Shown one piece after another: positions 2,511 through 64,000 of a stretch of DNA of 64,000 bases (the stretch's first letter is position 1; each line of letters starts with the position of its first letter). The notes below the pieces were generated by a model. It made no database searches, was not told the DNA's origin, and saw nothing but the letters and a program-made list of their open reading frames with translations. The position numbers and the translations under genes are program-made. This DNA is from Scenedesmus sp. PABB004 (Eukaryota), in assembly GCA_014905635.1 (NCBI GenBank), contig JABVCE010000020.1:186001-250000 (forward strand), in the 5' to 3' direction.

Positions 2511-4900
2511 ATGGCTTCACACAGCGATAGCGCTCCGGTTCGGGCAGCGCTCGCACTGGCGGCGGCGCTGGCGCTGCTCGCGGCCGCCCCGGCCGGCGGC
2601 GCAGCGGCGCGCCGCCCCGGGCGCGGCCTGCTGGCGGACGGGAGTGGCTACCGCAGCCTGCTGACAGCCACCACTGTGCCCGCGGCCGAGTGCCCGCCCG
2701 GCAGCGGCGTGTCAAATCGCGAAGGCGACTGCGCGCCGTGCAAGCGCAGCACCTGGTCGGCGGGCGGGCAGGGCGCCAAGTGCCAGCTCTGCCGAAAGGG
2801 CTACACCACGGCCAGCGACAGTGCAACATCGCCGGCGGCCTGCAGTGACTGCCGGGCCGGCTACGGGCGCGACCTCCACGCGCGGCCCAAACGCTGTGTT
2901 CTCTGCCCGGCCGGCACGTGGCGCGCGGCCAAGCCGGGGCAAGGCATCAGTTTCTGCCATGCCTGCCCCCTGCTGACAACAACGCCGGGCCCTGGTGCCA
3001 AGAGCGTCGCCGCGTGCAACGTGACCGTCGCCCTGCCCGACGACCCGCTGGCGTCGGCGCTGCTGCGCGGCCTGGCGGAGCTGGGCCCGGGACAGCTCGG
3101 CAACAATTGGCTGTCAACGTGGCGCCCCGGCACCGACCCCTGCACCTGGCAAGGCGTGGTATGCTCAGTGAGCACGCCGCGCGTGGTTAATTTGGTCAAC
3201 ATTGTCCTCACAGGACCGTGCACCGGCCGCCTGCCACGCGCGTGGGCCGAGCTCGGCGCCGGGCTGGAGGGGCTGTTCATCACTATCAACAGCCAAGGGG
3301 GTGAACAAAGCGGCCTCAGCGACGCGTCGTGGCCTGCGGAGTGGCGCAACCTCACCGGCCTCAAGCGCCTCCGGCTTGATGGCGTGGGCGTGACCGGCGC
3401 GCTGTCGCTCGCGGCGCTGCCGCCGACCATACAGAGCGTGGGGCTTTACAACAACCGCCTCACCTCCCTGGCCGACGACCTCGTGCCGGGCGCGCTGCCC
3501 GTGCTGGATGGGCTGATCATCCAGCAAGACCCTGCGCGCCCCATCGGCGGGACGCTCCCGGCGTCGTGGGGCACTCTCGCAAAGTTGGGGTCGCTGGACT
3601 TCCGCAACAAGGCGCTGATTGGCCCGCTGCCTGCCGCCTGGGGCGCCGGCATGGTGACACTTGGAGAGCTGTACTAGGGCGGCAACGCGCTGACCGGCCC
3701 CCTGCCTGCCGCCTGGGGCGACGGCATGGCGGCGCTCACACGGCTTGATCTGTCGCACAATGCCATCACGGGGCCCCTACCCGATGCGTGGGGCGGCCTG
3801 TCCAACCTTACATCGATGCAACTGTCGTACAACAACATCAGCGGCCCCATCCCTGAGGCCTGGGCCGGCGGCCTGGCGGCTCTGGGCACCCTGGACCTGT
3901 CGCACAACGCGCTCAACGGCTCACTGCCCGCCAGGGCGCTGAGCAACGTGCCGGTCCTGGACCTCAGTTACAACCAGGTGCGGCGCCTGGCAGGCCGGCG
4001 GCACAGCGCGCTGACACAGGCAGGCCCTGCGCGGGCTCACGGCAGGCGCGTACACGCACCGACCTGCGCTCTTCCCTGCCGCGGTGCCGCCGCCCCGCAG
4101 CTGACGGGGCGCGTAAACAACTGGGCGGGGTGGACAACGATCTCTAACTGCTCTGGACTCATGATTTACCCCATCCTGAACCTCGCGCACAATCAGCTCA
4201 CCGGCCCGCTGCCCGAGGCGCCGGGGGGCAAGGCTGGCCTCATCGACCTGTCGGACAACGCCCTCACCTCCACGCTGCCGGCCGCCTGGGCGCAGTGGGC
4301 CCGTGCCCCTGGTGAGCAACCCCCGCACTGGCTCAGCGCTGCGCGGCAGCTGCTGCATGCTGAGCGCGTGGCGCGCCACGCTCGCCCACCCAGTGCGGCC
4401 GCCGCTCCCTGCCTCCGCTGCGACCGCCGCCGCCGACAGGCTGCAGGCCGGACCTTGCACTTGAGCTCTCCAACAACCAGCTCCGCGGCCCGCTGCAGCC
4501 CGGGTGGGGCTCCTGGTCGGTGCCCTCGCAGGCGACGCTGAGCTGGCTCAACCTCACCGGCAACCCCCTCAACGCCACGCTGCCGCCCGAGTGGGGCAGC
4601 AGCGCAAGCCTGGGGTCGCTGGACGTGCGGCACTGCGGCCTGCAGGGCACGTTTCCAGCTGCAGCGTGGGCGGCGATGCGGCTCTACGAACTGGGCATCT
4701 GCGACAACCCAGACCTCTCCGGCTGCCTGCCGCACGCGTGGCTCCAGCGCGGCATGTCCCTGCTGGTGCACCCGCGCGCGTGCGAGCTGCCGGGCGACTG
4801 CGCCACGTGGGTGCCGATCAGCGAGCTAGCGAGAGGCGCAGCGCTGCACCCGGACCCGCTGCAAAACACTCGTATCACTGGCGTGTGCCCTGCGGCGTGA
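2511..4900 (+). pseudogene. LRR1: secreted Cys-rich-repeat (ephrin-receptor-like/GCC2-GCC3) + plant-type LRR protein, with an in-frame TAG
   Basis: Signal peptide, CxxC repeats, LRRNT (WRPGTDPCTWQGVVC) and LxxLxLxxNxLTGPLP repeats. Exons 2511-3977, 4101-4311, 4440-4900. TAG at 3675-3677 (ELY*GGNAL) replaces a framework Leu. Confidence 0.8.
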
Positions 4901-5448
4901 GCGCTGCTGCCACGGGGAGCGCTTGGGGGCGTTGAGAGCCAGCACTGTGGGGAGGGGCGCACCTGCGCGCACGCAGCATTGACGCAAGCGGCACTGCACT
5001 GCGTTGCTTGAAAAACACTAGCGGCGGGGCTCAGGCCACGCCAGCGGCGCGGCAGCACCGCAAACTGAGGGGTCAAGGCGGCGGCGTGGGAGTGGGACTG
5101 CTGATCTCACATGCGTGGCGGCACTGCGCTGGGCTGCGTGCGCATGAGCGGCGGTGGGCGTTTGCGGTCACGGACGGCTGGGTGCTAGTCGGCAGCGCGC
5201 GTGGTGCTTGGCAGGGCAGGCGTGAGCGCCCCGTGTGGCGCGTGCGTGGACTGCACTCGTGAGGGGCGCGTGGGCGCGGGGCAGGAGGCGGTTGCCTCGT
5301 GAGAGTTTCAATCAAGCGCTGGCCGCACAGCTCCTTTGCACATGGCGATCCTGGAAACCAAACCCTGTTCTCCCCTGGCGGCGGCGCGTCTCGCAGCGCC
5401 GGCCCCCGCCCGCCCGGCTGCAGCACCGCGCGCCTCGCCCGGCGCCCC

Positions 5449-6721: not shown

Positions 6722-7914
6722 ATGCGGGCGCAGGCGCGCGGCGCGGCGCCGCGCGGCAGCGCGCGGCCGCTGCCGCCGCCGGCAGCCGGCCGCGCCGGGC
6801 GCGGCGCGCCGCGGGCCCCGCCGGCGGCCGCCGTGGGCGGCAACGGCGCCGCGCCGTCAGGCGCGGGCAAGACCGTGACGCTGCTCGACTATGGCGCCGG
6901 CAACGTGCGCAGCGTGCGCAACGCCATCGCCAAGCTCGGGTTCACCATTAAGGACGTGAGAGCAGCGCCGCCCCGCGCGCGGCAGCCCCAGCGCCCCAGC
7001 GCCCCAGCGCCTCAGCGCCCCAGCGCCCAGGCCCTGGCGCGGCGCGGCGCGGCGCGGCGCGGCGCGGCTGCGCACCGCGTCGGGCCCTGCTGCCCGCCGC
7101 TCTGAAGCAGCCCCGCGCCGCAGCAGCCCCGCCCCTCACCTCACCGCCGCCCGCCGCCACCGCCCGCGCGCCCCCTCCTGCAGGTGTCCAGCCCGGCCGA
7201 CATCGCGTCCGCGGAGCGGCTCATCTTCCCGGGCGTGGGCAGCTTTGGCACGATGATGGACGTGCTGCGCCAGCGCGACTACCTCAAGCCCCTGGAGGAC
7301 TACATCGCGGTGCGCATCAGCCGCGCCGGCCGCCGCGTCAGGGGCGCGGGGCCCGTGCCGCCGCGGCAGCGAGCGCGCGGCCCGCGCTGGCGGCGGCGCC
7401 GGGCGGGCGGCGGGCCTGCCGCGCCGCGCGCCCACTCTGCCCACTCGCCCGCCCGCCCACTTGCCGCCGGCAGGCGGACAAGCCCTTCTTTGGCATCTGC
7501 CTGGGCATGCAGGTGGGGCCGCGCGCCCAGCGCGCACCGCGCGCCCAGTTCGCGCAGCGGCGCGGCGGCGCCGGCGGCCGGAGCGCCTCGCGCCCGCCCG
7601 CGCGCGCGCGCGCGCGCGCCCGCCCGCCCACGCGCCCACCCGCCCGCGCGCGCCTGTCCGCGCGCCGCGCTCAGGTCCTGTTTGAGGGCAGCGACGAGAG
7701 CGGCGGCGTGGAGGGCCTCGGGCTCATCGCGGGCCGCGTCGGCGCGTTTGACCCCGCGCGCGGCCTGCCCGTGCCCCACATCGGCTGGAACAGCCTGCGC
7801 CAGGCGCGCAGCAGCGACCTGCTCGCGGGCGCGGCGCCGACCGACCGCGTCTATTTCGTGCACTCGTTCAGGTGCGCTGTGTGCGGCTGCGGCTGCGCGT
7901 GTCGTTGTGGCTGT

Positions 7915-7945
<31 letters not shown>

Positions 7946-10270
7946 GGGGGGGGGGAGGGGGGGGGGACAAGGGCAGCCGCCAAGAGCAGCCGCCGGCGCC
8001 CGCCGCGAGCGCTGTGCCGTGTCGCCGCGTCCGCCCCACCCACCACGGGCGCCGCGCCGCGCCGCGCCGCCGCCGCCGCCCAGGGCGCTGCCGACCGAGG
8101 CCAACGTCGACTGGGTGCTCGCGACGAGCCACTACGGCGAGGACTTTGTGGCGGCCGTGGCCAAGGGGGCCGCGGCGGGGACGCAGTTCCACCCCGAGAA
8201 GAGCGGCCTGCTGGGGCTCGAGATACTGCGCGGCTTCCTCGACCCCGACAGCCCCGAGGCGGCCGCCGCGGCGGCGGCGGCCAACGCGCGCACGCTCGCG
8301 GGTGCGGCGCGGCGGGGGCGGAAGAGCGGGCAAGCGCGGGCGCGCGCGCGTCGGCGGCGGCGCGCGCGGGCGCGCCGAGCGCGCCCTGCGCCCTGCCTGC
8401 CCGCCCCCTGCTGCCCGGCAGCAGGGCTCGCGCGCGACGTCGACGCCGCGGGCGGCAGCGGGCTCGCGCGGCGCGTGATCGCGTGCCTCGACGTGCGCGC
8501 CAACGACGCGGGCGACCTGGTGCGCGCGCGCGCGCCTGCGCGCCGCCCGCGCCGCTGCCGCGCCTCACGCCGCGCCGCACACTGCGCTCCCACACGCGCG
8601 CGCCCCGCGCCCTGCCCCCCCCCCCCCCCCCCAACCCACCCACCCACCACCCACCCACCCACCCACCCACCCACCCACCCACCCACACCTGCGCGCCCTG
8701 CGCCCTGCGCCCCCCCCCCCAACTTCAGGTGGTGACCAAGGGCGACCAGTACGACGTGCGCGAGGACGAGGAGTCCGGCGGCGACGTGCGCAACCTGGGC
8801 AAGCCGGTCGAGCTCGCGGCGCGGTGCGCACGCCCCGCCGCGCCGCCGCGCCCGTGCACACGCCGCCCTGCGCCCCCCGCCGCCGCGCCGCCTCGCTCAC
8901 GTCCCTCCACCGCGCCTCTCATCCTTCCTCCCTCCCTCCCTCCTCCCCCTCCCTCCCTCCCACCCCCTCCCCCTCCCTCCGTCCCTGTTCAAACATTCAA
9001 AACCAACCAGCTACTTTGCCGAGGGCGCCGACGAGGTCGCGTTCCTTAACATCACAGGCTTCAGGGACTGCCCCCTCGAGGACCTGCCCATGCTCGGGGT
9101 GCGCGACGCCGCCGCCGCCGCCGCGCCGCGTGCCACGCCTGCGTCGCGCCGCGCGCGCGCCGCGCTGCGCGCCGCCGGCAGCTCGCGGACCCCGCCCGCG
9201 CGCGCGCCTCGCCCGCCCCGCGCAGGTGCTGCAGGCGGCGAGCGAGCGCGTGTTTGTGCCGCTGACGGTCGGCGGCGGCATTCGGGGTTCACCGCCGGCG
9301 GGCAGCAGTATGGGGCGCTGCAGGTCGCGGCCGAGTACTTCAGGCGCGGGGGAGCGCAAGGGCCACCCAAGGGCCCCCAGCGCCGCCCGCCCCGCCCCGC
9401 CGCGGCGCCGCCGCCGCCGCCGCGCGCGCCGCGCAGCACGCGCGCCGACGCCGCGCAGCACGCGCGCCGACGCCGCGCAGCACGCGCGCCGACGCCGCCT
9501 GCGCCGCCGCCGGCGCGCAGGTCTGGCGCGGACAAGGTCTCGATCGGCAGCGACGCGGTGCTCGCAGCGGAGGCCTACTACGCCGGCGGGCGCGCGCTGG
9601 ACGGCAGCACCGCGATTGAGCAGATCAGCGCCGTCTACGGCAAGCAGGCGGTCGTGGTGCGCACGCGCGCGGCGCGCGGCGCGGGGCGGGGGGGGGGGGG
9701 GCGCGTGCGCGCGGCGCGGGCCAGGGCGGCTCGCGCCCGGCCCCCGCAGACGGCTGACCGCAGACCGCTGGCTCGCAGGTGTCGATCGACCCGCGCCGCG
9801 TGTACGTGGCCGACCCCGGCGCCACGCCGCACGCGTGCGTGAAGGCCGCGGAGCCGGGGCCGGGCGGCGAGGCGTGGTGCTGGTGGCAGTGCACCGTCAA
9901 GGGCGGCCGCGAGGGGCGCGACATCGATGTGATTCAGGTGCGCCGGTGGTGCGGCGGTGCGGTCGTGGTGCGGTGGTGCGGTCGTGGTGCGGTGGTGCGG
10001 CGGTGGTGCGCCCGGCCGGGACGGACGCTGCACCGCCGCCTGGCCCAGCCGGCAAAGCCGCGCGGGCTGGCCGGCGGCGGCTGCAGACTGTGTGAGCGCG
10101 GCGGCCTCGGCGGCCTCGGCGCACGCGCCGCCCACGCCGCCGCCGCGTGCCGCCGCCGCGTGCGTCCGCCGCGCCGCGCCGCGCGGCCCGCAGGTCGCGC
10201 AGGCGGTGGAGGCGATGGGCGCGGGGGAGATCATGCTAAACTGCATCGACAACGACGGCCGCGGCCAGGT

Positions 10271-10338
<68 letters not shown>

Positions 10339-10931: not shown

Positions 10932-10995
10932 GAGGGAGGGAGGCCCGCGGGGGCGCGGCGTGGGCTGGGCGCGCGTGGCGCGGCGCGGGCGAGCA

Positions 10996-11014
10996 GCGGC
11001 GGCGCGGTGACGCC
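10996..11014 (+). promoter_or_regulatory. Conserved 19-mer opening the shared ~350-nt upstream block of LRR gene 2
   Basis: GCGGCGGCGCGGTGACGCC. The block 10990-11342 aligns with the upstream regions of LRR3, 4, 5 and 6. Confidence 0.45.
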
Positions 11015-11342
11015 GCGCCCGTGCCGCACGCAGGCGGTGCTGATGACACCGTTTGCAGCTCTCAGGTCGGCCCAGGCGCCCAGCCGCGCTGCCAGCCCCG
11101 GACGCGCCCGCCAGGCCCTGCTTCCGGGGCTTGCGCACTCCTCCCCGCGACCAGGCCGCACCGCCGCTCCGCCGCCGCGCCGTTCGCCCCGCCTCTATCG
11201 CACCGGCACCTCAGCGCTGGCCCAGCGGCGCGCTGCCGCGGCCCACCGTGCACTGCGAGACCAACCCGGGCAATCCGCTGTCGCAGCGCGCCCCGGGCGG
11301 CCGGCAGGCCCCGCCCGCACTCGCTCCGCCGCCAGGCCAGTC

Positions 11343-13505
11343 ATGCCAGCCCGCAGCGGCCACGCGCTGGCGCGGCACGCGCTCGCACTGGCGGCGGCGC
11401 TGGCGCTGCTGCTCGCGGCCGCCCCGGCCGGCGGCGCGGCGGCGCGCGGGCCGCGGCGCGGCCTGCTGGCGGACGGGGGTGGCTCCCGCAGCCTGCTGGC
11501 CACCACCACTGCGCCCGCGGTCAACTGTACACCCGGCAGCGGCGTGTCGGCGGGCGGCGGCGAGTGCGCGCCTTGCGAGCGCGGCAGGTGGTCGCGAGGC
11601 GGGGCGAACGCCGTGTGCCGGCTCTGCGGAAAGGGCTACAACACTGCCGGCCCAAATGCAACATCAGCAAGGGCCTGCAGCGACTGCCGGGCCGGCTACG
11701 GGCGCCCGCCTGCCGGAGGACGCCGCACCTGCGCGCTCTGCTCGACCGGCACGTGGCGCGCCGCCAAGCCGGGGGCCGGCATCAAGGTCTGCCAGGTTTG
11801 CCCCGTGCTGACGACGACGTCAGGCCCCGGCGCCAAGAGCGCGGCCGCGTGCAACGTGACCGCCGCCCTCGACGACCCGATCGCGTCGGCGCTGCTGCGC
11901 GGCGCGCTGGAGCTGGGCCCGCAGTTCAGTGACCGTTCGCTGGCGTCCTGGCGCCCCGGCACCGACCCCTGCACCTGGCAAGGCATAATGTGCACAGACA
12001 GCACGCCGCGCGTGGTCAGAGCGATCGGCCTTCAACTCGGACCGTGCACCGGCCGCCTTCCGCGCGCGTGGGCTGAGCTCGGCCCCGGGCTGGAGGAGCT
12101 GAGCATCACCATCAATGGCGGGGCCAGCCTCGCCGACCCGTCGTGGCCCGTGGAGTGGCGCAACCTCACCGGCGTCAAGCGCCTCTCCCTGAATGGCGTG
12201 GGCGTGACCGGCGCGCTGTCGCTGGGGGCGCTGCCGCCGAGTGTGGAGCGCGTGGACCTTCTGAACAACCGCTTCACCTCCCTGGCCGATGATCTGGCGC
12301 CGGGCGCGCTGCCCGCGCTGGCTCAACTGGCCATCGGTCAAGACCCCGACCACCGCATCAGGGGCACGCTGCCGGCCTCGTGGTCGACGCTCGCCGCGCT
12401 GCAGTCGCTGGACCTCCGCAGCCAGGCGCTGACCGGCCCGCTGCCTCCAGCATGGCCCGGCATGGCGGCGCTTCGAGAGCTGCGCCTGAGCGGCAACGCG
12501 CTCAGTGGGCCACTGCCCGCCAAGCTGCCCCCCAACGTTTTGCACCTGGACCTCAGCCACAACCAGGTGCGGCGCCTTACCCAGGCGACGGCGCGGCGCG
12601 GCGCGCGCTGCGCCGCGGACGGCCCGACGCGAGCTGCTCAAGCGGGCGCGCGTGCACAGCCCGACCTGCGGCCCGCCGCGCGCTGCCGCAGCTGACGGGC
12701 CGCCTGGATGCCTGGGAGTGGTGGAACGATACTTGTGACCCCGTCTCCACTGCTGGATCGTGTGAGGAAAAGCGCGCCTTGTTCCTCGCCCACAACCAGC
12801 TGACCGGCGCGCTGCCCGAGGGCCCTGCGGGCAGGGCCTACTTGGTTGATCTGTCGGACAACGCCCTCACCTCCACGCTGCCGGCGGCCTGGGCGCACTG
12901 GGCCAGCAATGATCCAGGTGGGCTGTCGGCGAGCGCTGCGCGCCGCGGCCGGTGACGGTGGTTGGGGCGCGCGTGGTACGCTGCTGGCCGGCAGGCCCAG
13001 CCGCTGGCCGCCCCAACTCAGACATCTGCCGCCAACAGGCTCTGGTAGTCAGGCCGTCATGCTCAACCTCGCCGGCAACCAGCTCCGCGGCCCGCTGCCG
13101 CCCGAGTGGGGCAACTGGACGTGGCCCGCAGAGCGAGATTGGCTGCACGGCCTCAACCTCACCGGCAACCCGCTCAACGCGACGCTGCCGCCCGAGTGGG
13201 GCAGCTTGAACCTGTGGGCGCTGGACGCGAGCTTCTGCAGCCTGCGCGGCGAGCTTCCAGCGGCGTGGGCACCAATAAGGCTCTCCGCACTGGCCATCAG
13301 CGACAACCCAGACCTCTCCGGCTGCCTGCCCCGCGCGTGGCTTCAGCTTGAGGGCTTTATGCAGCTGCTGGTGCACCCGCGCGCGTGCGAGCTGCCGGGC
13401 GACTGCGCCACGTGGGTGCCGATCAGCGAGCTGACGAGCGGCGCGGCGCCGGACCCGGACCCGCTGCGAAACACTCACATCACTGGCGTGTGCCCGCCGC
13501 CGTAG
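11343..13505 (+). CDS. LRR2: secreted Cys-rich-repeat + LRR protein, apparently intact, short LRR array
   Basis: MPARSGHALARHALALAAALALLL signal peptide. Exons 11343-12566, 12692-12917, 13039-13505, with the same two intron positions as its paralogs. No TM helix seen. Confidence 0.85.
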
Positions 13506-13599
13506 CGCCGCTGCACAGTGCGAGGGGCGTGCATTTGTGTGTCTGCACCACACGAAGCGCATGCCGTGCTGAGCCGGCACACACGCATCGGGCACAAGC

Positions 13600-14862: not shown

Positions 14863-17408
14863 ATGCCCAGCCGCAGCGGCCACGCGCTGGCGCGGCACGC
14901 GCTCGCACTGGCGGCGGCGGCGCTGGCGCTGCTGCTCGCGTCCGCCCCGGCCGGCGCCGCGGCGGCGCGCGGGCCCAGGCGCGGCCTGCTGCTCGCGGAC
15001 GGGAGCGGTCCCGCAGCCTGCTGGACACCGCGGCCGCGCCCAGCAAGGTGTGCAAGCCCGGTACCGGCGTGACACTGGGCGCAGGCAAGCGCGGCACTTG
15101 GTGCCGGCCGTGCAAGGCCGGCACCTGGTCTGCCGGCGGCCTCAACGCCAAGTGCAAGGCCTGTCGGCAGGGGTACAAGACCGTCGGAGGCGGCGCATCG
15201 AGCTGCAGCGACTGCCGGGGCGGCTATGGCCTGCCATTGAGCGCCGGCAACGCAACGAACGTCTGCGAACCCTGCCCGGCCGGCACGTGGCGCGACGCCA
15301 AGCCGGGGGAGGGCATCCAGCCCTGCAACGCCTGCCCTCCGCTGACGACGACAGCAGGCCCCGGCGCCAAGAGCGTCGCCGCCTGCAACCAGAGCCTCGC
15401 CCTCCCCGACGACCCGCTGGCGTCGGCGCTGCTGCGCGGCGCGGCGGAGCTGGGCCCGCAGTTGAGTGACAGTTCGCTGGCGTCTTAGCGGTCAGACACC
15501 AACCCCTGCACCTGGCGGGGCGTGATCTGCTCGGACAGCACGCCGCGCATGGTCACAGCGCTCGACATTTACTTGGGGCAGCAGCCGACCGGCCGCCTGC
15601 CGCGCGCGTGGGCCGAGCTCGGCCCCGGGCTGGAGTCGTTGTACATCACCATCAACAGCCAAGGCAGTGAACAAAGTGGCCTCAGCGACGCGTCGTGGCC
15701 CGTGGAGTGGCGCAACCTCACCGGCCTCAAGCGCCTCCGGCTTGATGGCGTGGGCGTGACCGGCGCGCTGTCGCTCGCGGCGCTGCCGCCGAGCGTGCAG
15801 AGCGTGACTCTTTACAACAACCGCCTCACCTCCCTGGCCGACGACCTCATGGGGGGAGCGCTGCCCGCTCTGGATGAGCTGATCATCCAGCAAGACCCTG
15901 CTTCTTACCCCATCGGCGGGACGCTGCCGGCGTCGTGGGGTGCGCTCGCAAAGTTGTGGTCGCTTGACCTCCGCAGGCAGGCGCTGACCGGCCCCCTGCC
16001 CGAGGCGTGGTCCGGCATGGTGGCGCTCCAAGATCTGCGCCTGAGCGGCAACGCGCTCAGCGGACCCCTGCCTGCCTCCTGGGGCGGCGGCATGGCGGCG
16101 CTCACCAGTCTGAACTTGAGCGGCAACGCGCTCAGCGGTCCCCTGCCTGCCGCCTGGGGCGACGGCATGGCGGCGCTCACCAGTCTGAACTTGAGCGGCA
16201 ACGCCCTCGGCGGCCCCCTGCCTGCCTCCTGGGGCGCCGGCATGGCGGCGCTCATGTTGCTGGACCTGTCGCACAATGCCATCACGGGGCGCCTTCCTGA
16301 TGCGTGGCGCATGGCCAAGCTCTCATGGCTGGACCTGTCGCGCAACAGCATCAGCGGCCCCATCCCCGAGGCCGTTACCGGCGGCCTGGTGGCACTGGGC
16401 ACCCTGGACCTGTCACACAACGCGCTCAGCGGGTCACTGCCCGCCAGGGCTTTCAGCAACGTTGGGGCCCTGGACCTCAGTTACAACCAGGCGCGGCGCC
16501 TGGCTGGGCGGCGGCGCGGCGGCGCGCTGACATAGGCAGGCCGTGCACGGGCTGCGCTGGCAGCTCACGGCAGGCTGAGCACTCACCTGCGGCGTGCCGC
16601 GGTGCTGCCGCTCCTTTGCAGCTGACGGGGCGCATCAAAGACTGGGCGAGATGGACGACGCTTGCCAGCTGCTTCACGGTCAATTTTGCCCACAACCAGC
16701 TGACCGGCCCGCTGCCCGAGGTGCGGTGGGACGGCCCTGGCGGCATCGACCTGTCGGACAACGCCCTCACCTCCACGCTGCCGGCCGCCTGGGTGCAAAG
16801 GGCGTGGACTGAAGGAGGTGGGCTGTCGCACTCGCTGCGCTGGGAACGCTGCTGGCGGTGCCTGAGCGCGGCACATGCTGGCCCAGGCCCAGCTGCCATG
16901 GTCACATGGCGCCCGACTCACATCTGCTGCCGCAGATTGCGGCTGGCGCGTGGACCTCAACCTCGCCGGCAACCAGCTCCGCGGCCCCCTGCCGCCCGAG
17001 TGGGGTGCCTGGACCCTAGACCCTTACGCTGGCCTTGGGGCTGTGTCTGTGGCGCTGGCCTCGCTCAACCTCACCGGCAACCCGCTCAACGCCACGCTGC
17101 CGCCCGAGTGGGGCAACATCACGAGCCTGGGGTCGCTGGACGTGCGGTCCTGCGGCCTGAGCGGCATTTTTCCCGCCGCAGAGTGGGCGCCGATGCGGCC
17201 CGACCGACTTGGCATCAGCGACAACCCAGACCTCTCCGGCTGCCTGCCCCGCGCGTGGCTCAAGCCAAAGGGCTACTCATCGCTTCTGTACTATCAGCCC
17301 AACTGCGCCTGCTCCATGCCGGTGGCGCTGAGCGAGCTGGCGAGCGGCAAGGCGCTGGACCCAGACCCGCTGCGCAACACGCAAATCGTCGGCATTTGCC
17401 CGGCGTGA
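14863..17408 (+). pseudogene. LRR3: Cys-rich-repeat + LRR paralog with a frameshift and a nonsense codon
   Basis: 1-nt deletion near 15009 (GGGAGCGGTCCCGCAGC versus paralog GGGGGTGGCTCCCGCAGC). TAG at 15486-15488 replaces the conserved LRRNT Trp. The first intron has a GC donor at 16491. Confidence 0.85.
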
Positions 17409-18350: not shown

Positions 18351-18364
18351 GCCGACCCTTGGCC

Positions 18365-36154: not shown

Positions 36155-36284
36155 CCTGCTAGCGGGCGAAAGTGCAGTGCCAAGCTGACCCCGCGCGACG
36201 AGCAAGTTGGCTGCACACAAGGCCGCAAGTTGGTCCGCCTTACCAACAGTTTGTAGGGCGGGGGAAAGGTTTTTTTGCATGCCA

Positions 36285-46182: not shown

Positions 46183-48577
46183 TCACGCAGGGCAGATGCC
46201 GGTGAGTTGCGTGTTGCGCAGCGGGTCCGGGCCTACCTGGCCGCTCGCCAGCTTTTTTAGCGACACCAGCATGGAGCAGGTGCAGTTGGGCTGATAGTAC
46301 ATCAGCGATGTGTAGCCCGTGGCCAGCCACGTGCGCGGCAGGCAGCCGGAGAGGTCTGGGTTGTCGCTGACGCCCAGTTGGTAGAGCCGCATCGGCGCCC
46401 ACTCCGCCGCTGGAAACGTCCCCTGCAGGCCGCAGGACCGCACGTCCAGCGACCCCAGGCTTGTGCTGTTCCCCCACTCGGGCGGCAGCGTGGCGTTGAG
46501 CGGGTTGCCGGTGAGGTTGAGCCAGCTCAGCGTCGCCTGCGAGGGCACCGACCAGGCGCCCCACTCGGGCGGCAGCGGGCCGCGGAGCTGGTTGTTGGAG
46601 AGCTCAAGTGCAAGGTCCGGCCTGCAGCCTGTCGGCGGTGGCGGTCGCAGCGGGGGCAGGGAGCGGCGGCCGCGCTGGGTGGGCGAGCGTGGCGCAAGCC
46701 ATGCGCTCAACATGCAGCAGCTGCCGCGCAGTGTTGTGCTGTGCCAGTGCGGGGGTTGCTCACCAGGGGCACGGGCCCACTGCGCCCAGGCGGCCGGCAG
46801 CGTGGAGGTGAGGGCGTTGTCGGACAGGACGATGCGGCCAGCCCTGCCCCCTGGCGCCTCGGGCAGCGGGCCGGTGAGCTGATTGTGCGCGAGGTTGAGG
46901 GTGGGATAGTCGGTGAAGGATCCAGAGCAGTTCACAATCGTCGCCCATCCCGCCCAGTCGGCCACGCGGCCCGTCAGCTGCGCGGAGCGTCGGCAGCGCA
47001 GCAGGGGCGCGGGTTGGGTTGGGTCCACGCGCAAGCAAAGGTGCCGCGGCCAGCGTGCGCGGGGCCTGTCTGCAGCAGTGCGCCGCTGCGCCGCGCCGCC
47101 GCCCAGCCAGGCGCCGCACCTGGTTGTAACTGAGGTCAAGGTCCGGCACGTTAACAAATGCCGCGGCAGGCAGTGACCCGCTGAGCGCGTTGTGTGACAG
47201 GTCCAGTTTCACCAGCGTCGCCAGGCCGCCGGCCCAGGCCTCAGGGATGGGGCCGGTCAGGTTGTTGTACGACAGTTGCATTGATGTGAGCTTGTCCAAG
47301 GCGCCCCACGCATCGGGAAGGGGCCCCCTGAGCGCGTTGTGTGACAGGCGCAGCTGTGTGAGCGCCGCCATGCCGCCGCCCCAGGAGGCAGGCAGGGGAC
47401 CGGTCAGCGCGTTGCCGCCCAAGTCGAGAGTGGTGAGCGCCGCCATGCCGGACCACGCCTCCGGGAGCGGGCCGGCCAGGGCCAGGTTGGTGAGGTCCAG
47501 CGACTGCAGCGTTGCAAGCGTGCCCCACGACGCCGGCAGCGTCCCGCCGATGGGGTAAGAAGCAGGGTCTTGCCGGACGGTCAGCTCAACCAGCGCGGGC
47601 AGCGCGCCCGGCGTCACGTCATTGCCCAGGGAGGTGAGGCGGTTGCCGTAAAGCGTCACGCTCTCCACGCTCGGCGGCAGCGCCGCCAGCGGCAGCGGTC
47701 CGGTCATGCCAACCCTGTCGATGGAGACGTACTTGAGGCCGGTGAGGTTGCGCCACTCCAGGGGCCACGACGCGTCGCTGAGGTTGGCCCCGCCGTTGAT
47801 GGTGATGCCCAGATACTCCAGCCCGGGGCCGAGCTCGCCCCACGCGCGCGGAAGGCGGCCGGTGCACAGTCCGAGCTGAAGGTCGACCTGTCTGACCACG
47901 CGCGGCGTGCTGCCTGTGCAGCCCACGCCTTGCCAGGTGCACGGGTCGGCGTCGGGGCGCCACGATGACAGGAAGTTGTTGCCGACCGCTCCTGGGCCGA
48001 GCTCCATCACGCCGCGCAGCAGCGCCGACGCCACCGGGTCGTCGGGGAGGGCGAGGCTCTGGTTGCACGCGGCCGCGCTCGTGGTGCCGGGGCCTGACGT
48101 CGTCGTCAGCACGGGGCAGGCGTGGCACGGCTGGATGCCCGCGCCCGGCTTGGCGGCGCGCCACGTGCCGGCCGGGCAGAGCGCACAGCGCTTGCCGGGC
48201 GCGTGCAGGTCGCGGCCGTAGCCGGCCCGGCAGTCGCCGCAGGCGCGCGCCGACATCGCGCCCTCAGTGGCGGTGGTGTAGCCTTTGGGGCAGCCCCGGC
48301 AGAGCGCGCCTGACCCGCCGGCCGACCAGGTGCCGCGCTTGCATTTTGCGCAGGCCCCGGCGCCCGCCGACACGCCGCTGCCGGGCGGGCAGCTGACGGT
48401 GGGCGCAGCGGCCGGCGCGGCCAGCAGGCCGCGGGAGCCACCCAAATCCGCCAGCAGGCCGCGCCGGGGCCCGCGCGCCGCCGCGCCGGCCGGGGCGGCG
48501 GCGAGCAGCAGCGCCAGCGCCGCCGCCGCCAGTGCGAGCGCGTGCCGCGCCAGCGCGTGGCCGCTGCAGCTGGGCTT
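46183..48577 (-). pseudogene. LRR4: Cys-rich-repeat + LRR paralog, frame open but start codon mutated (ATG>AAG)
   Basis: The minus strand reads TAA GTC AAG CCC AGC TGC AGC GGC CAC where paralogs read GTC ATG CCC AGC CGC AGC GGC CAC. It has the same two introns and ends TGICPA*. Confidence 0.72.
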
Positions 48578-57840: not shown

Positions 57841-58592
57841 GCTGAGGACGTCTGGCGGGCCGAGCTGTCACAGCTGTGACGGAGCTCGGCGGCAGTGTGG
57901 GCGCGGGGCGGGCAGCGCGGCGTCCCGCACAGCACGAGGCCGGGCCGCTGCGGCCGAGTTCTGGAGGAGGGATTGCAGCAGGCGGCTGGCCGGCGCGAGA
58001 ATGGCCGTGCGGCTTCTGGGAGGAGGGGCAGACAAGAACTGGCGCGGGATGCTCTTAGATTGCGCTGCTGCTCTGCGAGTGAAACGCACTGCTCCTTTGC
58101 CCACCGCGGGGACGCGTTGCCCCGGTCCGCGTGCGCTCCTGGACTCAGGCTGGATTCAGGCCGTCACCAGGCAACGCCGCCCCCCACACGGACCCGCTGC
58201 GCCGCCACGCCTGGCGCGCTCCGAGCGGGCGGGGGCCGAGCAGCGGCGGCGCGGTGACGCCGGCGCCCGTGCTGCACGCAGGCCGTGCGTTCGCCGCCGT
58301 TCCGCGGTTCTGGGTCGTTCCAGGCGCCCAGCCGCGCTGCCAGCCCCGGACGCGGCCCGCCAGGCCCTGCTTCCGGGCTTGCGAGCTCCTCCCCGCTCGA
58401 CCAGGCCGCACCGCCGCTCCGCCGCCGCGCCGTTCACCCCGCCTCCATCGCATCGTTACCTGAACACAGGCCCAGCGGCGCGCTGCCACGGCCCACCGTG
58501 CTCTGCGAGACCAACCCGGGCAATCCGCTGTCGCAGCGCGCCCTGGGCGGTCGGCAGGCCCCGCCCGCACGCGCTCCGCCTCCCGGCCCGTC

Positions 58593-60859
58593 ATGCCCAG
58601 CCGCGGCGGCCACGCGCTGGCGCGGCACGCCCTCGCACTGGCGGCGGCGGCGCTGGCGCTGCTGCTCGCGTCCGCCCCGGCCGGCGGCGTGGCGCGCGGG
58701 CCCAGGCGCGGCCTGCTGGCGGACGGGAGTAACTCCCGCAGCCTGCTGGTCGCCAACGCTGCGCCCGCCGTTGATTGCCCGGCCGGCAGCGGCGTGCCGG
58801 CGGGCGGCGGCGGCGACTGCGCGCCGTGCAAGCGCGGCACCTGGTCGGCCGGCGGGCCAGACGCGCGGTGCCGGGGCTGTCCCGAGGGCTACAACACGCC
58901 CGGCGAGGGCGAAACGTCGGCGGCGGCCTGCACCGACTGCCGGGCCGGCTACGGCAAACCGGCCGACAGCCGTGTGCGCACGTGCGAGCCCTGCCCGCCA
59001 GGCGCGTGGCGCAACTCGAAGCCAGGCGGCGGCATCAAGCCCTGCCATGCCTGTCCTGTGCTGACGACGACACCAGGCCCCGGCGCCAAGAGCCCGGCCG
59101 CGTGCAACGTGACCCTTGCCCTCCCCGACGACCCGGTGGCGTCGGCGCTGCTGCGCGGCCTGCTGGAGCTGGAGCTGGGCGCAGAGCTCATTGGTCGTCG
59201 CGGCCTGGGGTCGTGGAACCCCGGCACCAAACCCTGCACCTGGTCGGGCGTGGTCTGCTCACGAGGCGCGCCGCGCGTGGTCACATGGGTCAGTGCTTAC
59301 TTCAGGCGGCCGCCGACGGGCCGCCTGCCGCGCGCGTGGGGGGAGCTCGGCCCCGGGCTGGAGTCGCTGTACCTCAGCACGGACCCCGGAGTGAGCGGCG
59401 GGGCAAACCTCAGCGACGCGTCGTGGCCGACAGAGTGGCGCAGCCTCACCGGCCTCAAAAACCTCGCACTCAGAGGCATGGGCGTGACCGGCCCGCTGTC
59501 GCTGGCAGCGCTGCTGCCGCCAAACTTGGAGCGCGTGGACATTGGCGGCAGCCGCTTCACCTCCCTGGCCGACGACGTCACGCCGGGCGCGCTGCCTGCG
59601 CTGACTCAGCTGAACTTCCAGCAGGACGACGACCACCCTATCGGCGGGACGCTGCCGGCGTCGTGGGGCGCGCTCCCCGCGCTGCAGACGCTGGCCCTGA
59701 CGAATCTGGGTCTCACCGGCCCGCTGCCGGAGGCCGGCTTTCACAACCTCACGAACCTGATCCTGCCGCACAACGCGCTGTCAGGGCCGCTGCCGGGGGC
59801 CGGCTTTCCCAGCCTCAAGAACCTGGCCCTGCCGTTCAACGCGCTCTCAGGGCCGCTGCCGGCCAAGCTGCCGGCCAACTTGGTGTTCCTGGACCTCAGC
59901 CACAACCAGGTGCGGCGCACGGCACAGGGCCACGGCCGCTGCGCAGCGCACGCTGCGCCAGGGCGCAGACATGCCCCGCGCCGGCTGCGCTGGCAGCGGC
60001 AGGGGGCGCGCGGACACACGCACCGACTTGCGGTGCCGCCCAACCCCCGCGCAGCTGACGGGGCGCCTGGATGGCTGGGAGCTGTGGGCGCGTGGGCGCA
60101 GCCCGAGCGGTGACTGTGTCGACGACCTCAACCTTTCCCACAACCAGCTCACGGGCCCGCTGCCCGAGGCGCCGGGGGCCTGGCATGGCATGTTTCTGTC
60201 GGACAACGCCCTCACCTCCACGCTGCCGGCCGCCTGGGCGAAGTGGACGTTTCCTGAAGGTGGGCCAGGGCCGTTGCGTGCGATGCGCTGCAGCCGAGCG
60301 GCGAGAGGCTGGGCACGCCCAGCGTGCTGCTGGCCTGGCAGGCCCGGCCGCAGCCCGCGGCCGCACATGCTCATGCCCACCTCAACCCCGGCCGCCACCA
60401 GGCTGCGGCGGCGGAAGCGTGTACCCTGACCTCTCCAACAACCAGCTCCGCGGCCCCCTGCCGCCCGAGTGGGGCGCCTGGTCAGAGCCCATGCAGGCGA
60501 CGCTGGGCTGGCTCAACCTCACCGGCAACCCGCTCAACACCATGCTGCCACCCGAGTGGGGCAACATCACAAACCTGGGGTCGCTGGACGTGCGGTCCTG
60601 CGGCCTGCAGGGGACGTTTCCAGCTGCAGCGTGGGCGCCGCTGCGGCTCTATGCACTGGGCATCAGCGACAACCCAGGCCTCTCCGGCTGCCTGCCACGC
60701 GCGTGGCTTGAGCACGGGACGGAGCTGGTGAGGCCCACGTGCGAGGTGCCTGGAGGCTGCTGGGGCCCAGGGGTGCCCCTGACCGACCTGGTGAGCGGCG
60801 CGCCGCTCGACCAGGACCCGCTGCGCAACACCGACATCACCGGCCTGTGCGCGCCGTAG
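58593..60859 (+). CDS. LRR5: secreted Cys-rich-repeat + LRR protein, apparently intact
   Basis: Exons 58593-59909, 60055-60259, 60402-60859. Signal peptide, CxxC repeats, LRRNT, LRRs and a DNPGLSGCLP cap. Confidence 0.87.
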
Positions 60860-62300: not shown

Positions 62301-62746
62301 AGCTTCAGGCCATCACCAGGCAACGCCGGCCCCACACGGACCTGCCGCGCCGCCACGCCCGGGCGTGCGCCGAGCGTTCGAGCGCCGAGCTGCGGCGGCG
62401 CGGTGACGCCCGCGCCCCCGTGCCGCACGCACGCCGTGCGGATGATGCCGTTTTGCAGCTCTCCGGTCGGCCCAGGCGCCCAGCCCCGCTTCCAGCCCCG
62501 GACGCGCCCGCCAGGCCCTGCTTCCGGGGCGCTGCACGGGCTTGCGAGCTCCTCCCCGCGACCAGGCCGCACCGCCGCTCCGCCGCCGCGCCGTTCGCCC
62601 CGCCTCCATCGCACCGGCACCTCCGCACTGGCCCAGCGGCGCGCTGCCGCGGCCCACCGCGCGCACGAGACCAACCCGCGGCTGTCGCAGCGCGCCCCGG
62701 GCGGTCGGCAGGCCCCGCCCGCACGCGCTCCGCCTGCCAGCCAGTC

Positions 62747-64000
62747 ATGTCCAGTCGCAGCGGCCACGTGCTGGCGCGGCACGCGCTCGCACTGGCGGCG
62801 GCGCTGGCGCTGCTGCTCGCGGCCGCCCCGGCCGGCGGCGCGGCGGCGCGCGGGCCGCGGCGCGGCCTGCTGGCGGACGGGGGTGGCTCCCGCAGCTTGA
62901 TGGCCGCTACTGCAGAGCCGGCCGTCGTTTGCCCGCCCGGCAGCGGCGTGTCGGCGGGCAGCGGCGGGGCCTGCGCGCCGTGCGCGCGCGGCACCTGGTC
63001 GGCCGGCGGGCCAGACGTGCGCTGCCGGGGCTGCCTCAAGGGCTACAACACGCCCGGCGAGGGCGCAACGTCGGCGGCGGCCTGCAGCGACTGCAGGGCC
63101 GGCTACGGCCGCGCGCGCGAGCGCAACCGGCCGGGCTGGCTATTGGTCAACCGCTTCCACTACGTCTGCGCGCTCTGCCCGACCGGCACGTGGAGCGCCA
63201 CCAAGCCGGGCGCCGGCATTCAACGCTGCCGCCCCTGCCCCGCGCTGATGACGACGTCAGGCCCCGGCGCCAAGAGCGCGGCCGCATGCAACGTGACCCT
63301 CGCCCTCCCCGACGACCCGGTGGCGTCGGCGCTGCTGCGCGGGGCGATGGAGCTGGGCCTGCCTGCCGGCAACCCTTCCCTGGCATCCTGGCGCGCCGAC
63401 ACCGACCCTTGCACCTGGTCGGGCGTGCGCTGCTCATCGAGCGCACAGCGTGTGGTCGCGGAGCTGGGCGTCAGCCTGTCTGGGCAACCGACCGGCCGCC
63501 TGCCGCGCGCGTGGGGCGAGCTCGGCCCTGATCTGGTGTCGCTGACCATCGGCGCACACGACACCCCCAAGTTCAGCGACCCGTCCGTGCCCCAGGAGTG
63601 GCGCAACCTCACCGGCCTCAGGACGTTGTGGCTAGTCGGCCTAGGCCTGTCCGGCCCGCTGTCGCTGGCGGCGCTGCCACCAAACGTGGACACCGTGCGG
63701 TTTGGCAGCAACAACTTCACCTCCCTGGCCGACGATCTGGCGCCGGGCGCGCTGCCCGCGCTGGGCGACCTAGCAATCTGGCAAGACCCCGTGTGCCCCA
63801 TAACGGGGACGCTGCCGGTCTCGTGGTCGATGCTTACGGCGGTGCTGTCGCTGCGCCTTGCCAACCATGCGCTGACCGGCCCCCTGCCTCCCACCTGGGG
63901 CACCGGCATGGCAGCGCTCACGACGCTGGACCTGTCGCACAACGCGCTCACGGGGGCCCTCCCCCATGAGTGGGACGGCATGGCCAAGCTCTTGCAACTT
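62747..64000 (+). CDS. LRR6: secreted Cys-rich-repeat + LRR protein, runs off the window end
   Basis: ATG at 62747 gives MSSRSGHVLARHALALAAALALLL; LRRNT WRADTDPCTWSGVRC; LTTLDLSHNALTGALP. It is absent from the ORF track because no stop lies in the window. Confidence 0.85.
   Translation, partial: MSSRSGHVLARHALALAAALALLLAAAPAGGAAARGPRRGLLADGGGSRSLMAATAEPAVVCPPGSGVSAGSGGACAPCARGTWSAGGPDVRCRGCLKGYNTPGEGATSAAACSDCRAGYGRARERNRPGWLLVNRFHYVCALCPTGTWSATKPGAGIQRCRPCPALMTTSGPGAKSAAACNVTLALPDDPVASALLRGAMELGLPAGNPSLASWRADTDPCTWSGVRCSSSAQRVVAELGVSLSGQPTGRLPRAWGELGPDLVSLTIGAHDTPKFSDPSVPQEWRNLTGLRTLWLVGLGLSGPLSLAALPPNVDTVRFGSNNFTSLADDLAPGALPALGDLAIWQDPVCPITGTLPVSWSMLTAVLSLRLANHALTGPLPPTWGTGMAALTTLDLSHNALTGALPHEWDGMAKLLQL

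Follow-up and report, generated by a model that had tools for sequence, protein, structure and literature searches.

A clustered family of secreted-type LRR proteins with variable predicted concave faces in the green alga Scenedesmus sp. PABB004

Introduction

PGIPs consist of an LRR domain only, with about 10 LRRs in about 330 aa. In the Cf-4/9 and Xa21 families, sequence is exchanged between paralogs and the solvent-exposed strand residues are hypervariable, as in the algal genes reported here. The available text of PMC4115169 describes PGIPs as small clustered gene families that evolve by birth and death. The Ectocarpus families LRR-ROCO and NB-ARC-TPR are presented, in the accessible part of Zambounis et al. 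2012 (PMC3341825), as immune candidates with high levels of birth and death and with diversifying selection on the repeats.

We analyzed a 64-kb window (the whole stretch of DNA under study) of a very GC-rich green alga, assigned to Scenedesmus sp. PABB004 by a 100% protein match; the window contains six LRR paralogs (c1–c6). Taking all the evidence together, we consider it probable that these genes form a PGIP/Cf-like birth-and-death family with diversified concave faces, the products of which act as soluble or wall-bound extracellular binders.

Results

Gene models and locus

An initial annotation of the window had proposed six paralogs that share nearly invariant framework blocks. All six were present at the implied places, with the GRLPRAW block in every copy (Table 1). 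Most copies also had the other blocks: EWRNLTG, TSLADD, and PGALP occurred in five of the six copies each, GGTLPASW in four, and LSLAALPP in three, the remaining three being one residue or one insertion off.

Each gene has three exons and only two introns; exon 1 alone encodes LRR1–11, and the protein ends approximately 45 residues past the last LRR. Exons 2 and 3 of c1 have GT..AG borders. The number of LRRs in c2 is below that in c1, c3, and c4. The c2 product matched the central portion of the deposited protein P0017 with 100% identity, and the c5 product was 99–100% identical to the C-terminal part of P0018. With two further members elsewhere on the same contig, the family comprises at least eight genes, all on one contig. 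The minus-strand position of c4, the three-exon structure, the Cys-rich N-terminal domain, the lesions, the small size of the family, and the lack of VLR-like cassettes had escaped the initial annotation. Three near-identical secreted-type sulfatase genes lie within the same cluster as the LRR paralogs.

Table 1. Positions of the six paralogs and of their lesions in the window.
Feature	Position	Strand	GRLPRAW block	Description
Paralog c1	2511..4900	+	3225	Exons 2511-3977, 4101-4311, 4440-4900; 712 codons read through; premature stop
c1 lesion	3675..3677	+		In-frame TAG versus TTG (Leu) in c3 and c4; position 6 of LRR7; from DNA alignment and ORF break
Paralog c2	11343..13505	+	12051	Exons 11343-12566, 12692-12917, 13039-13505; 638 aa; intact
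Paralog c3	14863..17408	+	15591	Exons 14863-16490, 16622-16817, 16936-17408; extra LRRs; three lesions
c3 lesion	15008..15009	+		1-bp deletion versus the other five copies; signal-peptide region and remainder of the gene in different frames; from alignment
c3 lesion	15486..15488	+		In-frame TAG in place of conserved TGG (Trp) in the LRRNT motif
c3 intron-1 donor	16491..16492	+		GC, not GT (AACCAG/GCGCGG versus AACCAG/GTGCGG)
Paralog c4	46183..48577	-	47860(-)	Exons 48577-47120, 46977-46764, 46628-46183; 705 codons; start codon lost
c4 lesion	48575..48577	-		AAG versus ATG in the other five copies
Paralog c5	58593..60859	+	59319	Exons 58593-59909, 60055-60259, 60402-60859; 659 aa; intact
Paralog c6	62747..64000	+	63494	Open for 418 codons; leaves the window end within LRR8

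Domain architecture and fold

The proteins start with a signal-peptide-like N-terminus, which is followed by the Cys-rich Ephrin_rec_like domain, the LRRNT_2 cap, approximately 14–20 LRRs of the plant type, and a C-terminal cap that bears Cys; the full-length models have 638–765 residues and about 17 LRRs. A match above the gathering score was taken as the criterion for Pfam membership. Exon 1 of c1 matched Ephrin_rec_like (PF07699) in two stretches with 43.9 bits (cut-off 23.1, E = 2e-11) and LRRNT_2 (PF08263) with 28.6 bits (cut-off 20.7, E = 1.8e-6). PF08263 is also among the precomputed families of the deposited proteins P0002 and P0017, and the Cys columns of Ephrin_rec_like are invariant in the six-sequence alignment.

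The Pfam matches of c1 exon 1 and the precomputed families were limited to Ephrin_rec_like, LRRNT_2, and LRR, and the kinase families PF00069 and PF07714 were absent both from these c1 matches and from the families of P0002 and P0017–P0019. No TM segment was found after the LRRs in the five full-length models, in which the sole Kyte-Doolittle peak of ≥1.5 over 19 residues was N-terminal. These results agree with the earlier statement that TM and kinase domains are missing, and they support the prediction of a secreted-type LRR family. The name "FLS2" under which the paralog P0002 was deposited does not indicate membership, because these proteins lack a TM segment, a juxtamembrane region, and a kinase.

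The repeat is approximately 24 residues long (LxxLxLxxNxLxGxLPxxW/L), and its register could be read in all copies. In the AF2 model (mean pLDDT 81.6), each LRR encoded by exon 1, 11 in all, had one strand, on positions 3–5 (up to 8). The best Foldseek matches were the plant LRR ectodomains MIK2, FLS2, PEPR1, ERL, and PGIP, with E values of 1e-14 to 1e-12.

Variability of the strand positions

All 30 strand strings quoted in the initial annotation were reproduced exactly in our alignment. The pairwise amino-acid identity of eight paralogs was 0.35 at the x-positions of xxLxLxx, compared with 0.68 at the remaining exposed positions and 0.71 in the rest of the LRRs. Among columns with at least five copies, 16% of the x-columns were invariant and 36% contained at least four different residues, compared with 52% and 7%, respectively, of the other LRR columns. 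These values bear out the hypervariability of the strands, which exceeds chance, and support a concentration of amino-acid change on the predicted concave β-strand positions of a conserved scaffold.

The x-codons were also richer in A/T, as the initial annotation had noted, with a GC content of 64.1% versus 71.1% in the LRR framework codons. In LRR1–5, the corresponding values were 60.7% and 72.5%, and GC3 was 0.80 versus 0.88, the GC gap lying mostly at codon positions 1–2. Synonymous diversity was 0.228 adjacent to hypervariable columns and 0.069 at nine or more codons away; therefore, part of the contrast between x-positions and the rest is regional and not selective.

Variability restricted to the strands of a constant scaffold, together with A/T-richer x-codons, gives the family a superficial likeness to a VLR- or antibody-like system, in which diversity would arise somatically, either from the joining of LRR cassettes or from mutation directed at the strand codons. 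The structure of the locus speaks against this. A tblastn search of the window with three full-length copies gave 81 HSPs, none of which fell outside the six genes as an LRR fragment or donor cassette. Every gene is a complete germline unit, and the presence of eleven LRRs in one exon excludes shuffling of one repeat per exon. The synonymous diversity of the strand-core codons (positions 1, 4, 6, and 9) was 0.148, not above the value of 0.185 found elsewhere in the framework, which argues against a strand-targeted mutator. Somatic assembly of the VLR type is close to refuted for the window, and we regard such a system as extremely improbable. The proposal of an antibody-like repertoire was not upheld, given a family of at least eight members on one contig, the breakage of three of the six window copies, and the absence of donor cassettes from the window.

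Codon models and tests of selection

Codon models were fitted with our own implementation on a fixed topology, using six sequences that are recombinant. Equality of the x-positions and the other exposed LRR positions was rejected with 2ΔlnL values of 59 (MG94) and 83 (GY94) at 1 df. The ML ω values of the two classes were 1.08 and 0.40 with MG94 and 0.88 and 0.26 with GY94. Pairings that require no tree gave ω values of 0.79–1.33 for x-positions, 0.22–0.47 for other exposed positions, and 0.27–0.45 for the rest, and the NG86 value for x-positions was 1.32. The expectation of a higher dN/dS on the exposed strands than elsewhere was borne out, and the data support an x-position rate about threefold higher than in any other class, the remaining solvent-exposed LRR positions being one of these classes. 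The values of 0.26–0.40 at these remaining exposed positions indicate that a site is not freed just by being exposed.

In regards to ω values above 1, the outcome depended on the model and on the repeats included. Over all 17 LRRs, the x-position ω was 0.88–1.16 and statistically indistinguishable from 1 (LRT 0.7–2.5; 0.7 for the MG94 value of 1.08). It exceeded 1 nominally only with MG94, at 1.27 for the exon-1 LRRs (LRR1–11; LRT 4.9) and 1.38 for LRR1–5 (LRT 6.2). Giving the x class its own rate lowered ω to 0.90 with MG94 and 0.49 with GY94 (LRT 11.4 against ω = 1). The values for LRR6–11 and LRR12–17 were 1.22 and 0.70, and those for the individual strand positions were 1.97 (p3), 1.21 (p5), 1.11 (p2), 0.94 (p7), and 0.53 (p8). 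An average of approximately 1 over 85 x-positions that include p8 and LRR12–17 implies that other positions lie above 1. Outside the x class, ω was 0.3–0.45 in the framework and N-terminal domain and 0.55–0.75 in the C-terminus.

M2a was preferred over M1a, with 2ΔlnL values of 45 and 114 and with 9–11% of sites at ω 4–11 in the six recombinant sequences; recombination inflates the LRTs of site models and gives false positives. The x-positions, which make up 74 of the 648 columns, accounted for 7 of the 14 sites with P>0.8 in MG94 and 13 of 44 in GY94, an enrichment with an odds ratio of 4–8. Most candidate selected sites fell outside the x-positions, and, of the nine sites that MG94 placed at P>0.9, four adjoin an indel in the Cys-rich domain. 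Overall, the diversifying selection proposed earlier is weakly supported at the x-positions, and ω>1 is not robust to model choice.

Relaxed constraint alone would explain several of these values. According to this reading, the genes are decaying tandem duplicates with unconstrained concave x-positions (ω = 1), and neither adaptive diversification nor a recognition repertoire is involved. It is consistent with x-position values that mostly do not differ from 1, with a gene-wide ω that is high for a functional protein, and with site-model signals produced by recombination. It does not readily account for the span from p3 and LRR1–5 down to p8 and LRR12–17, or for the low ω at the other solvent-exposed positions.

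Disabling lesions

Disabling lesions were found in three of the six window copies, c1, c3, and c4 (Table 1), which also agrees with relaxed constraint, all the more as c3 carries three of them. TAG, the codon found in c1, genuinely terminates the reading frames of c2 and c5. The intron-1 donor is GT in the four other copies that reach that point, in contrast to c3. In c4, the AAG is preceded by an in-frame stop two codons upstream, and the signal-peptide region has no other Met. As assembled, half of the window copies are unable to yield the full secreted protein.

The lesion-bearing copies had 19, 13, and 13 private changes at conserved columns, compared with 8 in c2 and 16 in c5, and c6 had 9 as counted from exon 1 only. 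The lesions appear to be recent, because the copies that bear them show no clear excess of such changes. All Cys and framework residues have been retained in the intact copies c2 and c5 and in the part of c6 that lies in the window. Both the retained residues and the absence of marked excess damage weigh against relaxed constraint as the only cause, which we consider somewhat unlikely.

Exchange between paralogs and lineage restriction

The identity between c1 and c4 was 95–98% over intron 2 and exon 3 and 75–83% elsewhere. Identity reached 93% between c1 and c3 in LRR3–4 and 90% between c2 and c4 in LRR2, and trees of different segments conflict among the paralogs, which are recombinant mosaics. 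The LRR count varies among copies. The comparison shows a birth-and-death mode of evolution, with duplication, whole-repeat loss and gain, segment exchange, and recent inactivation of copies.

No ortholog was found in other species, the matches outside this species covering generic LRR sequence only, with at most 38% identity, and none was detectable among the other Scenedesmaceae and Sphaeropleales proteins in the databases searched. A search with the N-terminal module returned only the query itself and one weak Ephrin_rec_like match. The LRR family appears to be restricted to this lineage, as far as database sequences indicate.

This distribution bears on a role in self-recognition or development, either in the alga's own cell–cell or cell-wall interactions (for example, in forming the coenobium, in assembling the autospore wall, or in gamete recognition) or in the binding of endogenous peptides, with fast evolution as in reproductive or adhesion proteins and not as in immunity. 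A secreted Cys-rich LRR architecture with 6–9 NxS/T sites would suit wall or matrix glycoproteins, peptide-hormone and immune receptors are both among the closest solved folds, and the accessible text of PMC12757656 argues that chlorophyte LRR ectodomains may act in wall integrity or peptide signaling. The lack of a detectable ortholog in the related algae searched would be unexpected for a core developmental function, the loss of copies is tolerated, and the data fit binding of non-self equally well. We therefore regard a self or developmental role as improbable.

Discussion

The copies keep one fold and present different concave surfaces. Amino-acid replacement is focused on the x-positions lining the predicted concave face, most strongly at positions 3 and 5 of LRR1–11. 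These positions evolve near the neutral rate or slightly above it, while the scaffold remains under purifying selection. The proteins may be soluble or wall-bound and may bind extracellular ligands as PGIPs or the ectodomains of Cf-type proteins do. The ligands would differ from copy to copy or change, and candidates for them are molecules of pathogens, of grazers, or of the alga itself.

An immune role of the family is a matter we can only infer. In the stronger form, which is tentative and rather doubtful, the genes would be an independent chlorophyte PGIP/Cf-like set, the faces of which are diversified by positive selection and paralog exchange for defence against parasites, algicidal bacteria, and grazers. 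If so, a defence set would have arisen in a lineage otherwise thought poor in immune receptors. The sulfatase neighbours suggest a bolder form, in which the locus would be a module that senses or neutralizes foreign sulfated cues; the grazer kairomones that act on Scenedesmus are aliphatic sulfates.

Comparison with known systems

The VLRs of lampreys share with the paralogs an LRR solenoid with variability on the concave strand residues. They differ in having animal-type LRRs and caps, whereas those of the paralogs are plant-type; the window contained neither an incomplete germline gene nor flanking cassettes, nothing indicated somatic assembly, and the family consists of at least eight germline genes only.

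The families LRR-ROCO and NB-ARC-TPR of Ectocarpus are, as here, algal birth-and-death LRR families, and the accessible part of PMC3341825 proposes them as immune candidates. The same text describes GTPase or NB-ARC proteins that are intracellular and in which each repeat has its own exon and exons are shuffled. In contrast, the paralogs are predicted to be extracellular, have 11 LRRs in one exon, and owe their diversity to point substitution and segment exchange. With this exon structure, they do not belong to the exon-shuffled receptors of the ROCO type.

Cf-type RLPs and LRR-RLKs of the Xa21/FLS2 type, both of land plants, have in common with the paralogs LRRNT_2, the plant-type LRR ectodomain fold, and tandem clustering. 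The paralogs lack the TM segment, the juxtamembrane region, and the kinase, and they carry the extra Cys-rich N-terminal domain; lacking both TM segment and kinase domain, they were not classed as LRR-RLKs or LRR-RLPs.

PGIPs are, and the paralogs are predicted to be, secreted plant-type extracellular LRR proteins without TM segment or kinase. Both form small clustered birth-and-death families, as the available text of PMC4115169 states for PGIPs, and in both the variation is gathered at the xxLxLxx positions. The paralogs are approximately twice as long, with about 17 LRRs, and add the N-terminal Ephrin_rec_like module, and this build sets them apart from the short LRR-only PGIPs. There is no sequence orthology to PGIPs (25% identity in the structural alignment), and the host here is a chlorophyte. 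The PGIP structures 1ogq and 8ikw were among the Foldseek matches of the model (E = 7e-12 and 1.8e-12, respectively), and this likeness of predicted fold is the extent of the support for binding or inhibition of polygalacturonases by the paralogs.

Gene Models and Protein Architecture

We scanned all six frames of the window, in which G+C amounts to 70-83% in every 2-kb bin, for the framework blocks described in the initial annotation, and the blocks matched at six places, as had been claimed. The six paralogs (c1-c6) were then delimited by stop-to-stop ORFs, DNA alignment, and splice-site searches. The complete genes have three exons each: exon 1 of 1.2-1.6 kb with the 3′ border AACCAG/GT, exon 2 of 196-226 bp, and exon 3 of 446-473 bp, separated by GT..AG introns of 118-145 bp.

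Positions of the LRR paralogs, their lesions, and neighbouring features in the window
Feature	Position	Strand	Remarks
c1	2511-4900	+	ORF, alignment, splice sites
c1 premature TAG	3675-3677	+	aligned c3 and c4 carry TTG
c2	11343-13505	+	intact
c3	14863-17408	+	carries lesions
c3 1-bp deletion	~15008-15009	+	signal peptide cut off from remainder
c3 TAG	15486-15488	+	replaces conserved LRRNT Trp
c3 intron-1 donor GC	16491-16492	+	lesion
c4	48577-46183	-	carries lesion
c4 AAG for start ATG	48575-48577	-	stop two codons upstream
c5	58593-60859	+	intact
c6	62747 to window end	+	open as far as visible
c6 insertion	~63135-63165		in frame, ~30 nt
Cap type LLVHPRACELPGDC...	4760-4900, 13360-13505, 60720-60859		c1, c2, c5 (variant form)
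Cap type LLYYQPNC.CSM...	46183-46330, 17250-17408		c4, c3
Deposited 'HISN4' (P0017, 1971 aa)	6722-17405		histidine-biosynthesis gene (6722-10268) + c2 + c3
Deposited 'cypD' (P0018, 1978 aa)	49376-60856		P450-reductase gene (49376-57825) + c5
~4.1-kb repeat, first copy	27199-31319		Sulfatase ORF
~4.1-kb repeat, second copy	32051-36154		Sulfatase ORF
~4.1-kb repeat, third copy	45191-41474	-	Sulfatase ORF
~450-500-bp repeat	13596-14108		downstream of c2
~450-500-bp repeat	17757-18251		downstream of c3
~450-500-bp repeat	36266-36749		after second ~4.1-kb copy

The encoded proteins, predicted from their overall anatomy to be secreted, begin with a hydrophobic, signal-peptide-like N-terminus. This is followed by a Cys-rich stretch with similarity to Ephrin_rec_like (PF07699, E 2e-11), by an LRRNT_2 cap (PF08263, E 1.8e-6), approximately 17 plant-type LRRs (LxxLxLxxNxLxGxLPxxW; LRR1-17), and a short C-terminus bearing Cys. 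Repeats have been gained and lost in the family. The Kyte-Doolittle scan of five full-length models gave no hydrophobic peak besides the N-terminal one, and no kinase family was listed for any relative, in agreement with the initial description of proteins without TM or kinase domains. Two alternative C-terminal caps occur, the LLVHPRACELPGDC... type also being found in P0002 and P0019, two deposited proteins of the same contig; their distribution is at odds with the grouping of the copies in the LRR region. The insertion in c6, unusually A/T-rich and unique to this copy, lies between two conserved Cys of the Cys-rich domain.

Annotation, Family Size, and Distribution

The deposited protein P0017 from the PABB004 genome (39.8 Mb, 78.5% GC, and 7,092 genes according to the available text of PMC12571836) lies on a contig of 737,270 bp and contains a stretch with 100% identity to c2 exon 1. 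The deposited models that contain family members are chimeras, and the splicing of P0017 skirts the lesions of c3. Further family members are P0002, a protein named 'FLS2', and the tail of P0019, named 'radA'; they match the window at no more than 59-70% identity, which indicates two more paralogs elsewhere on the contig. Protein searches did not recover c1, c4, and c6 as deposited proteins. The family, counted from protein databases, therefore has at least 8 members.

The near-length protein search gave 15 proteins at E 1e-3 or better, the best foreign match showing 38% identity over half of the query; outside PABB004, the protein searches found generic LRR similarity only. Among the best 150 representatives from a library of 1.84 billion proteins, P0002 alone had its best stretch starting before query residue 99. 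When only the Cys-rich and LRRNT part was searched, the single match besides the query was a weak Ephrin_rec_like one. No account of the family was found in the literature searched, and the term 'leucine-rich' is absent from the available text of PMC12571836; the supplements of PMC13315243 and PMC12757656 may list its genes. The family appears to be restricted to this chlorophyte lineage and consists of secreted-type Cys-rich and LRR proteins with a fast-evolving concave face.

Variability and Fold of the Predicted Concave Face

All 30 strand strings (30/30) quoted in the initial annotation were present in the alignment. We defined class X as positions 2, 3, 5, 7, and 8 of each LxxLxLxxN, the predicted concave β-strand face. 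The mean pairwise amino-acid identity among the eight paralogs was 0.35 for class X, compared with 0.68 for other exposed LRR positions, 0.71 for the remaining LRR positions, and 0.68 for the N-terminal domain. The copies share one conserved solenoid scaffold and differ from each other in its concave surface. The strand patches had also been described as richer in A/T, and the GC content of X codons was indeed 64.1% vs 71.1% for LRR framework codons (60.7% vs 72.5% within LRR1-5); the first two codon positions account for most of the difference, and GC3 in LRR1-5 is 0.80 vs 0.88.

The AlphaFold2 model of c4 exon 1, built from the six-sequence alignment (mean pLDDT 81.6), places a β-strand at positions 3-5 in each of 11 repeats, extending up to position 8 in LRR1-5, and it is this strand register that constitutes the evidence of the model on the concave face. 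Its best PDB matches were plant LRR ectodomains and PGIP.

Tests for Selection on the Concave Face

Nei-Gojobori dN/dS pooled over the 15 pairs in exon 1 was 1.32 for class X, 0.54 for the LRR framework, and 0.74 for the N-terminal domain. Because third positions are 88% G+C, we wrote our own implementation of fixed-class likelihood models (MG94 and GY94 F3x4) and applied it to the six sequences. The ω value of class X (ωX) was 1.27 in exon 1 only (55 X codons; 2ΔlnL vs ω = 1, 4.9) and 0.88-1.16 over the 17 LRRs (85 X codons; LRT 0.7-2.5), where the framework gave 0.28-0.39 and the N-terminal domain 0.31-0.45. When class X had its own rate, ωX was 0.90 (MG94) and 0.49 (GY94).

The cleanest result of the selection analysis was obtained with an exposed control (positions 10, 12, 14, 17, 18, 20, and 21 of LRR6-17; 83 codons). 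The ω values of this control vs class X were 0.40 vs 1.08 (MG94) and 0.26 vs 0.88 (GY94), and equality of the two was rejected with 2ΔlnL of 59 and 83, respectively. Tree-free fits to five sets of three disjoint pairs gave 0.79-1.33 for ωX, 0.22-0.47 for exposed positions, and 0.27-0.45 for the rest. By position, ωX was 1.97 at p3, 1.21 at p5, 1.11 at p2, 0.94 at p7, and 0.53 at p8; by block, it was 1.38 in LRR1-5 (LRT 6.2 against 1), 1.22 in LRR6-11, and 0.70 in LRR12-17.

M2a was favored over M1a (2ΔlnL 45 for MG94 and 114 for GY94), with 9-11% of sites at ω 4-11. Class X, which occupies 74 of 648 columns, contained 7 of the 14 sites with P>0.8 under MG94 and 13 of the 44 under GY94 (Fisher odds ratios 8.5 and 3.7). 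The majority of the candidate selected sites lie outside class X. Under MG94, nine sites had P>0.9, and four of these adjoin an indel in the Cys-rich domain.

We consider the face-specific acceleration solid, with class X averaging close to the neutral ω level. A part of class X, namely positions 3 and 5 of LRR1-11, is likely, but not proven, to be under positive selection. The diversifying selection proposed in the initial annotation is weakly supported: class X exceeds the exposed control, M2a is preferred, and its sites are enriched at class X, but ωX above 1 depends on the model, and the data are recombinant and comprise six sequences.

Exchange between Paralogs and Silent-Site Patterns

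The trees of individual segments conflict and are star-like. The c1-c4 pair reaches 98% and 95% identity over two windows of 50 codons each within exons 2-3, and 95% over intron 2, compared with 70-86% elsewhere; further high-identity tracts are c1-c3 in LRR3-4 (93%), c2-c4 in LRR2 (90%), and c2-c6 in the signal peptide (96%). Which copies share a strand variant differs from repeat to repeat, so that the exchange of segments between paralogs reshuffles the variants.

In codons with invariant amino acids (six copies, exons 1-3), silent diversity decreased steadily from 0.228 adjoining hypervariable columns to 0.069 at a distance of ≥9 codons, so that a model with shared dS can overstate ωX. Nucleotide-identical codon runs were longer than under permutation (maximum 11 vs mean 4.9, P = 0.001). 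This pattern fits homogenization of the framework blocks with divergence kept around the variable patches; homogenization through conversion, or nucleotide-level constraint, could account for it. A mutator targeted to the strands is unlikely, since the synonymous diversity of strand-core codons was not raised (0.148 vs 0.185). The DNALTSTLP and LNLTGN blocks are nucleotide-identical in all copies.

Introns were also considered as a neutral yardstick. Their optimized pairwise identity (0.75-0.79 vs 0.69-0.70 for shuffled sequences) is near saturation for this composition, which makes calibration of dS impossible, and the comparison was useful solely for revealing the c1-c4 tract in intron 2. 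The 300 nt upstream of the c2, c3, and c5 starts are 91-92% identical, which exceeds the similarity of silent sites in their own coding regions (pS ~0.24-0.27, N-terminal part), and the region upstream of c1 is at the shuffled baseline. The upstream identity could represent a conserved promoter or 5′UTR, or recent conversion.

Broken Copies and Neighbouring Repeats

A variant genetic code reading through the TAGs of c1 and c3 was rejected: c2 and c5 end in TAG as their normal stop, and the internal TAGs replace Leu (c1) and Trp (c3), so that such a code does not rescue the broken copies. Because segment trees conflict, we counted private replacements at conserved columns in place of branch-specific ω. 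The lesion-bearing copies had 19, 13, and 13, c2 had 8, c5 had 16, and c6 had 9 (exon 1 only). There was thus no clear excess in the lesion-bearing copies, which suggests that gene death is recent or that some lesions are assembly errors.

The three copies of the ~4.1-kb repeat are 90-95% identical, and each contains an ORF for a Sulfatase (PF00884); the LRR genes, at 70-81% identity, are much older duplicates. The third repeat copy adjoins c4 on the downstream side. Together with the LRR paralogs, these repeats indicate that the locus multiplies two kinds of secreted-type genes. The copies of the ~450-500-bp repeat are 69-72% identical.

Implications and Comparison with Known Systems

Few immune receptors are recognised in green microalgae, according to the available part of PMC13315243, and chlorophyte LRR ectodomains have been studied mainly in receptor kinases, according to that of PMC12757656. 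A clustered, lineage-restricted, secreted-type LRR family with a fast face is a concrete candidate for binding extracellular ligands or non-self, in an industrially used algal group. Its products, either soluble or attached to the wall, may bind extracellular ligands with a specificity that would differ between copies, and this candidate role is testable via expression, pull-down, and knock-out. An immune role is likewise a candidate. With few members, some of them broken, and an equivocal ω, the family is of limited value for now. The deposited annotation conceals the family, since members are fused to HISN4, P450-reductase, and radA models or named FLS2, and domain-based surveys would consequently overlook or misfile it.

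The conserved scaffold with a fast concave face, as envisaged in the initial annotation, is supported, but the antibody-like repertoire is not: none of the 81 HSPs in the window lies outside the six genes, so that the LRR cassettes of a VLR-like system are absent there. Hypervariable xxLxLxx residues and sequence exchange between paralogs are features of the Cf/Xa21 clusters. The PABB004 family resembles PGIP families and Cf-type clusters in these two respects and in birth and death, which the available text of PMC4115169 describes for PGIP. It has no orthology to either and is a member of neither: its proteins lack TM and kinase domains, carry an added Ephrin_rec_like module, and are twice as long as PGIP. 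It also differs from the Ectocarpus receptors, in which each exon encodes one repeat (available text of PMC3341825).
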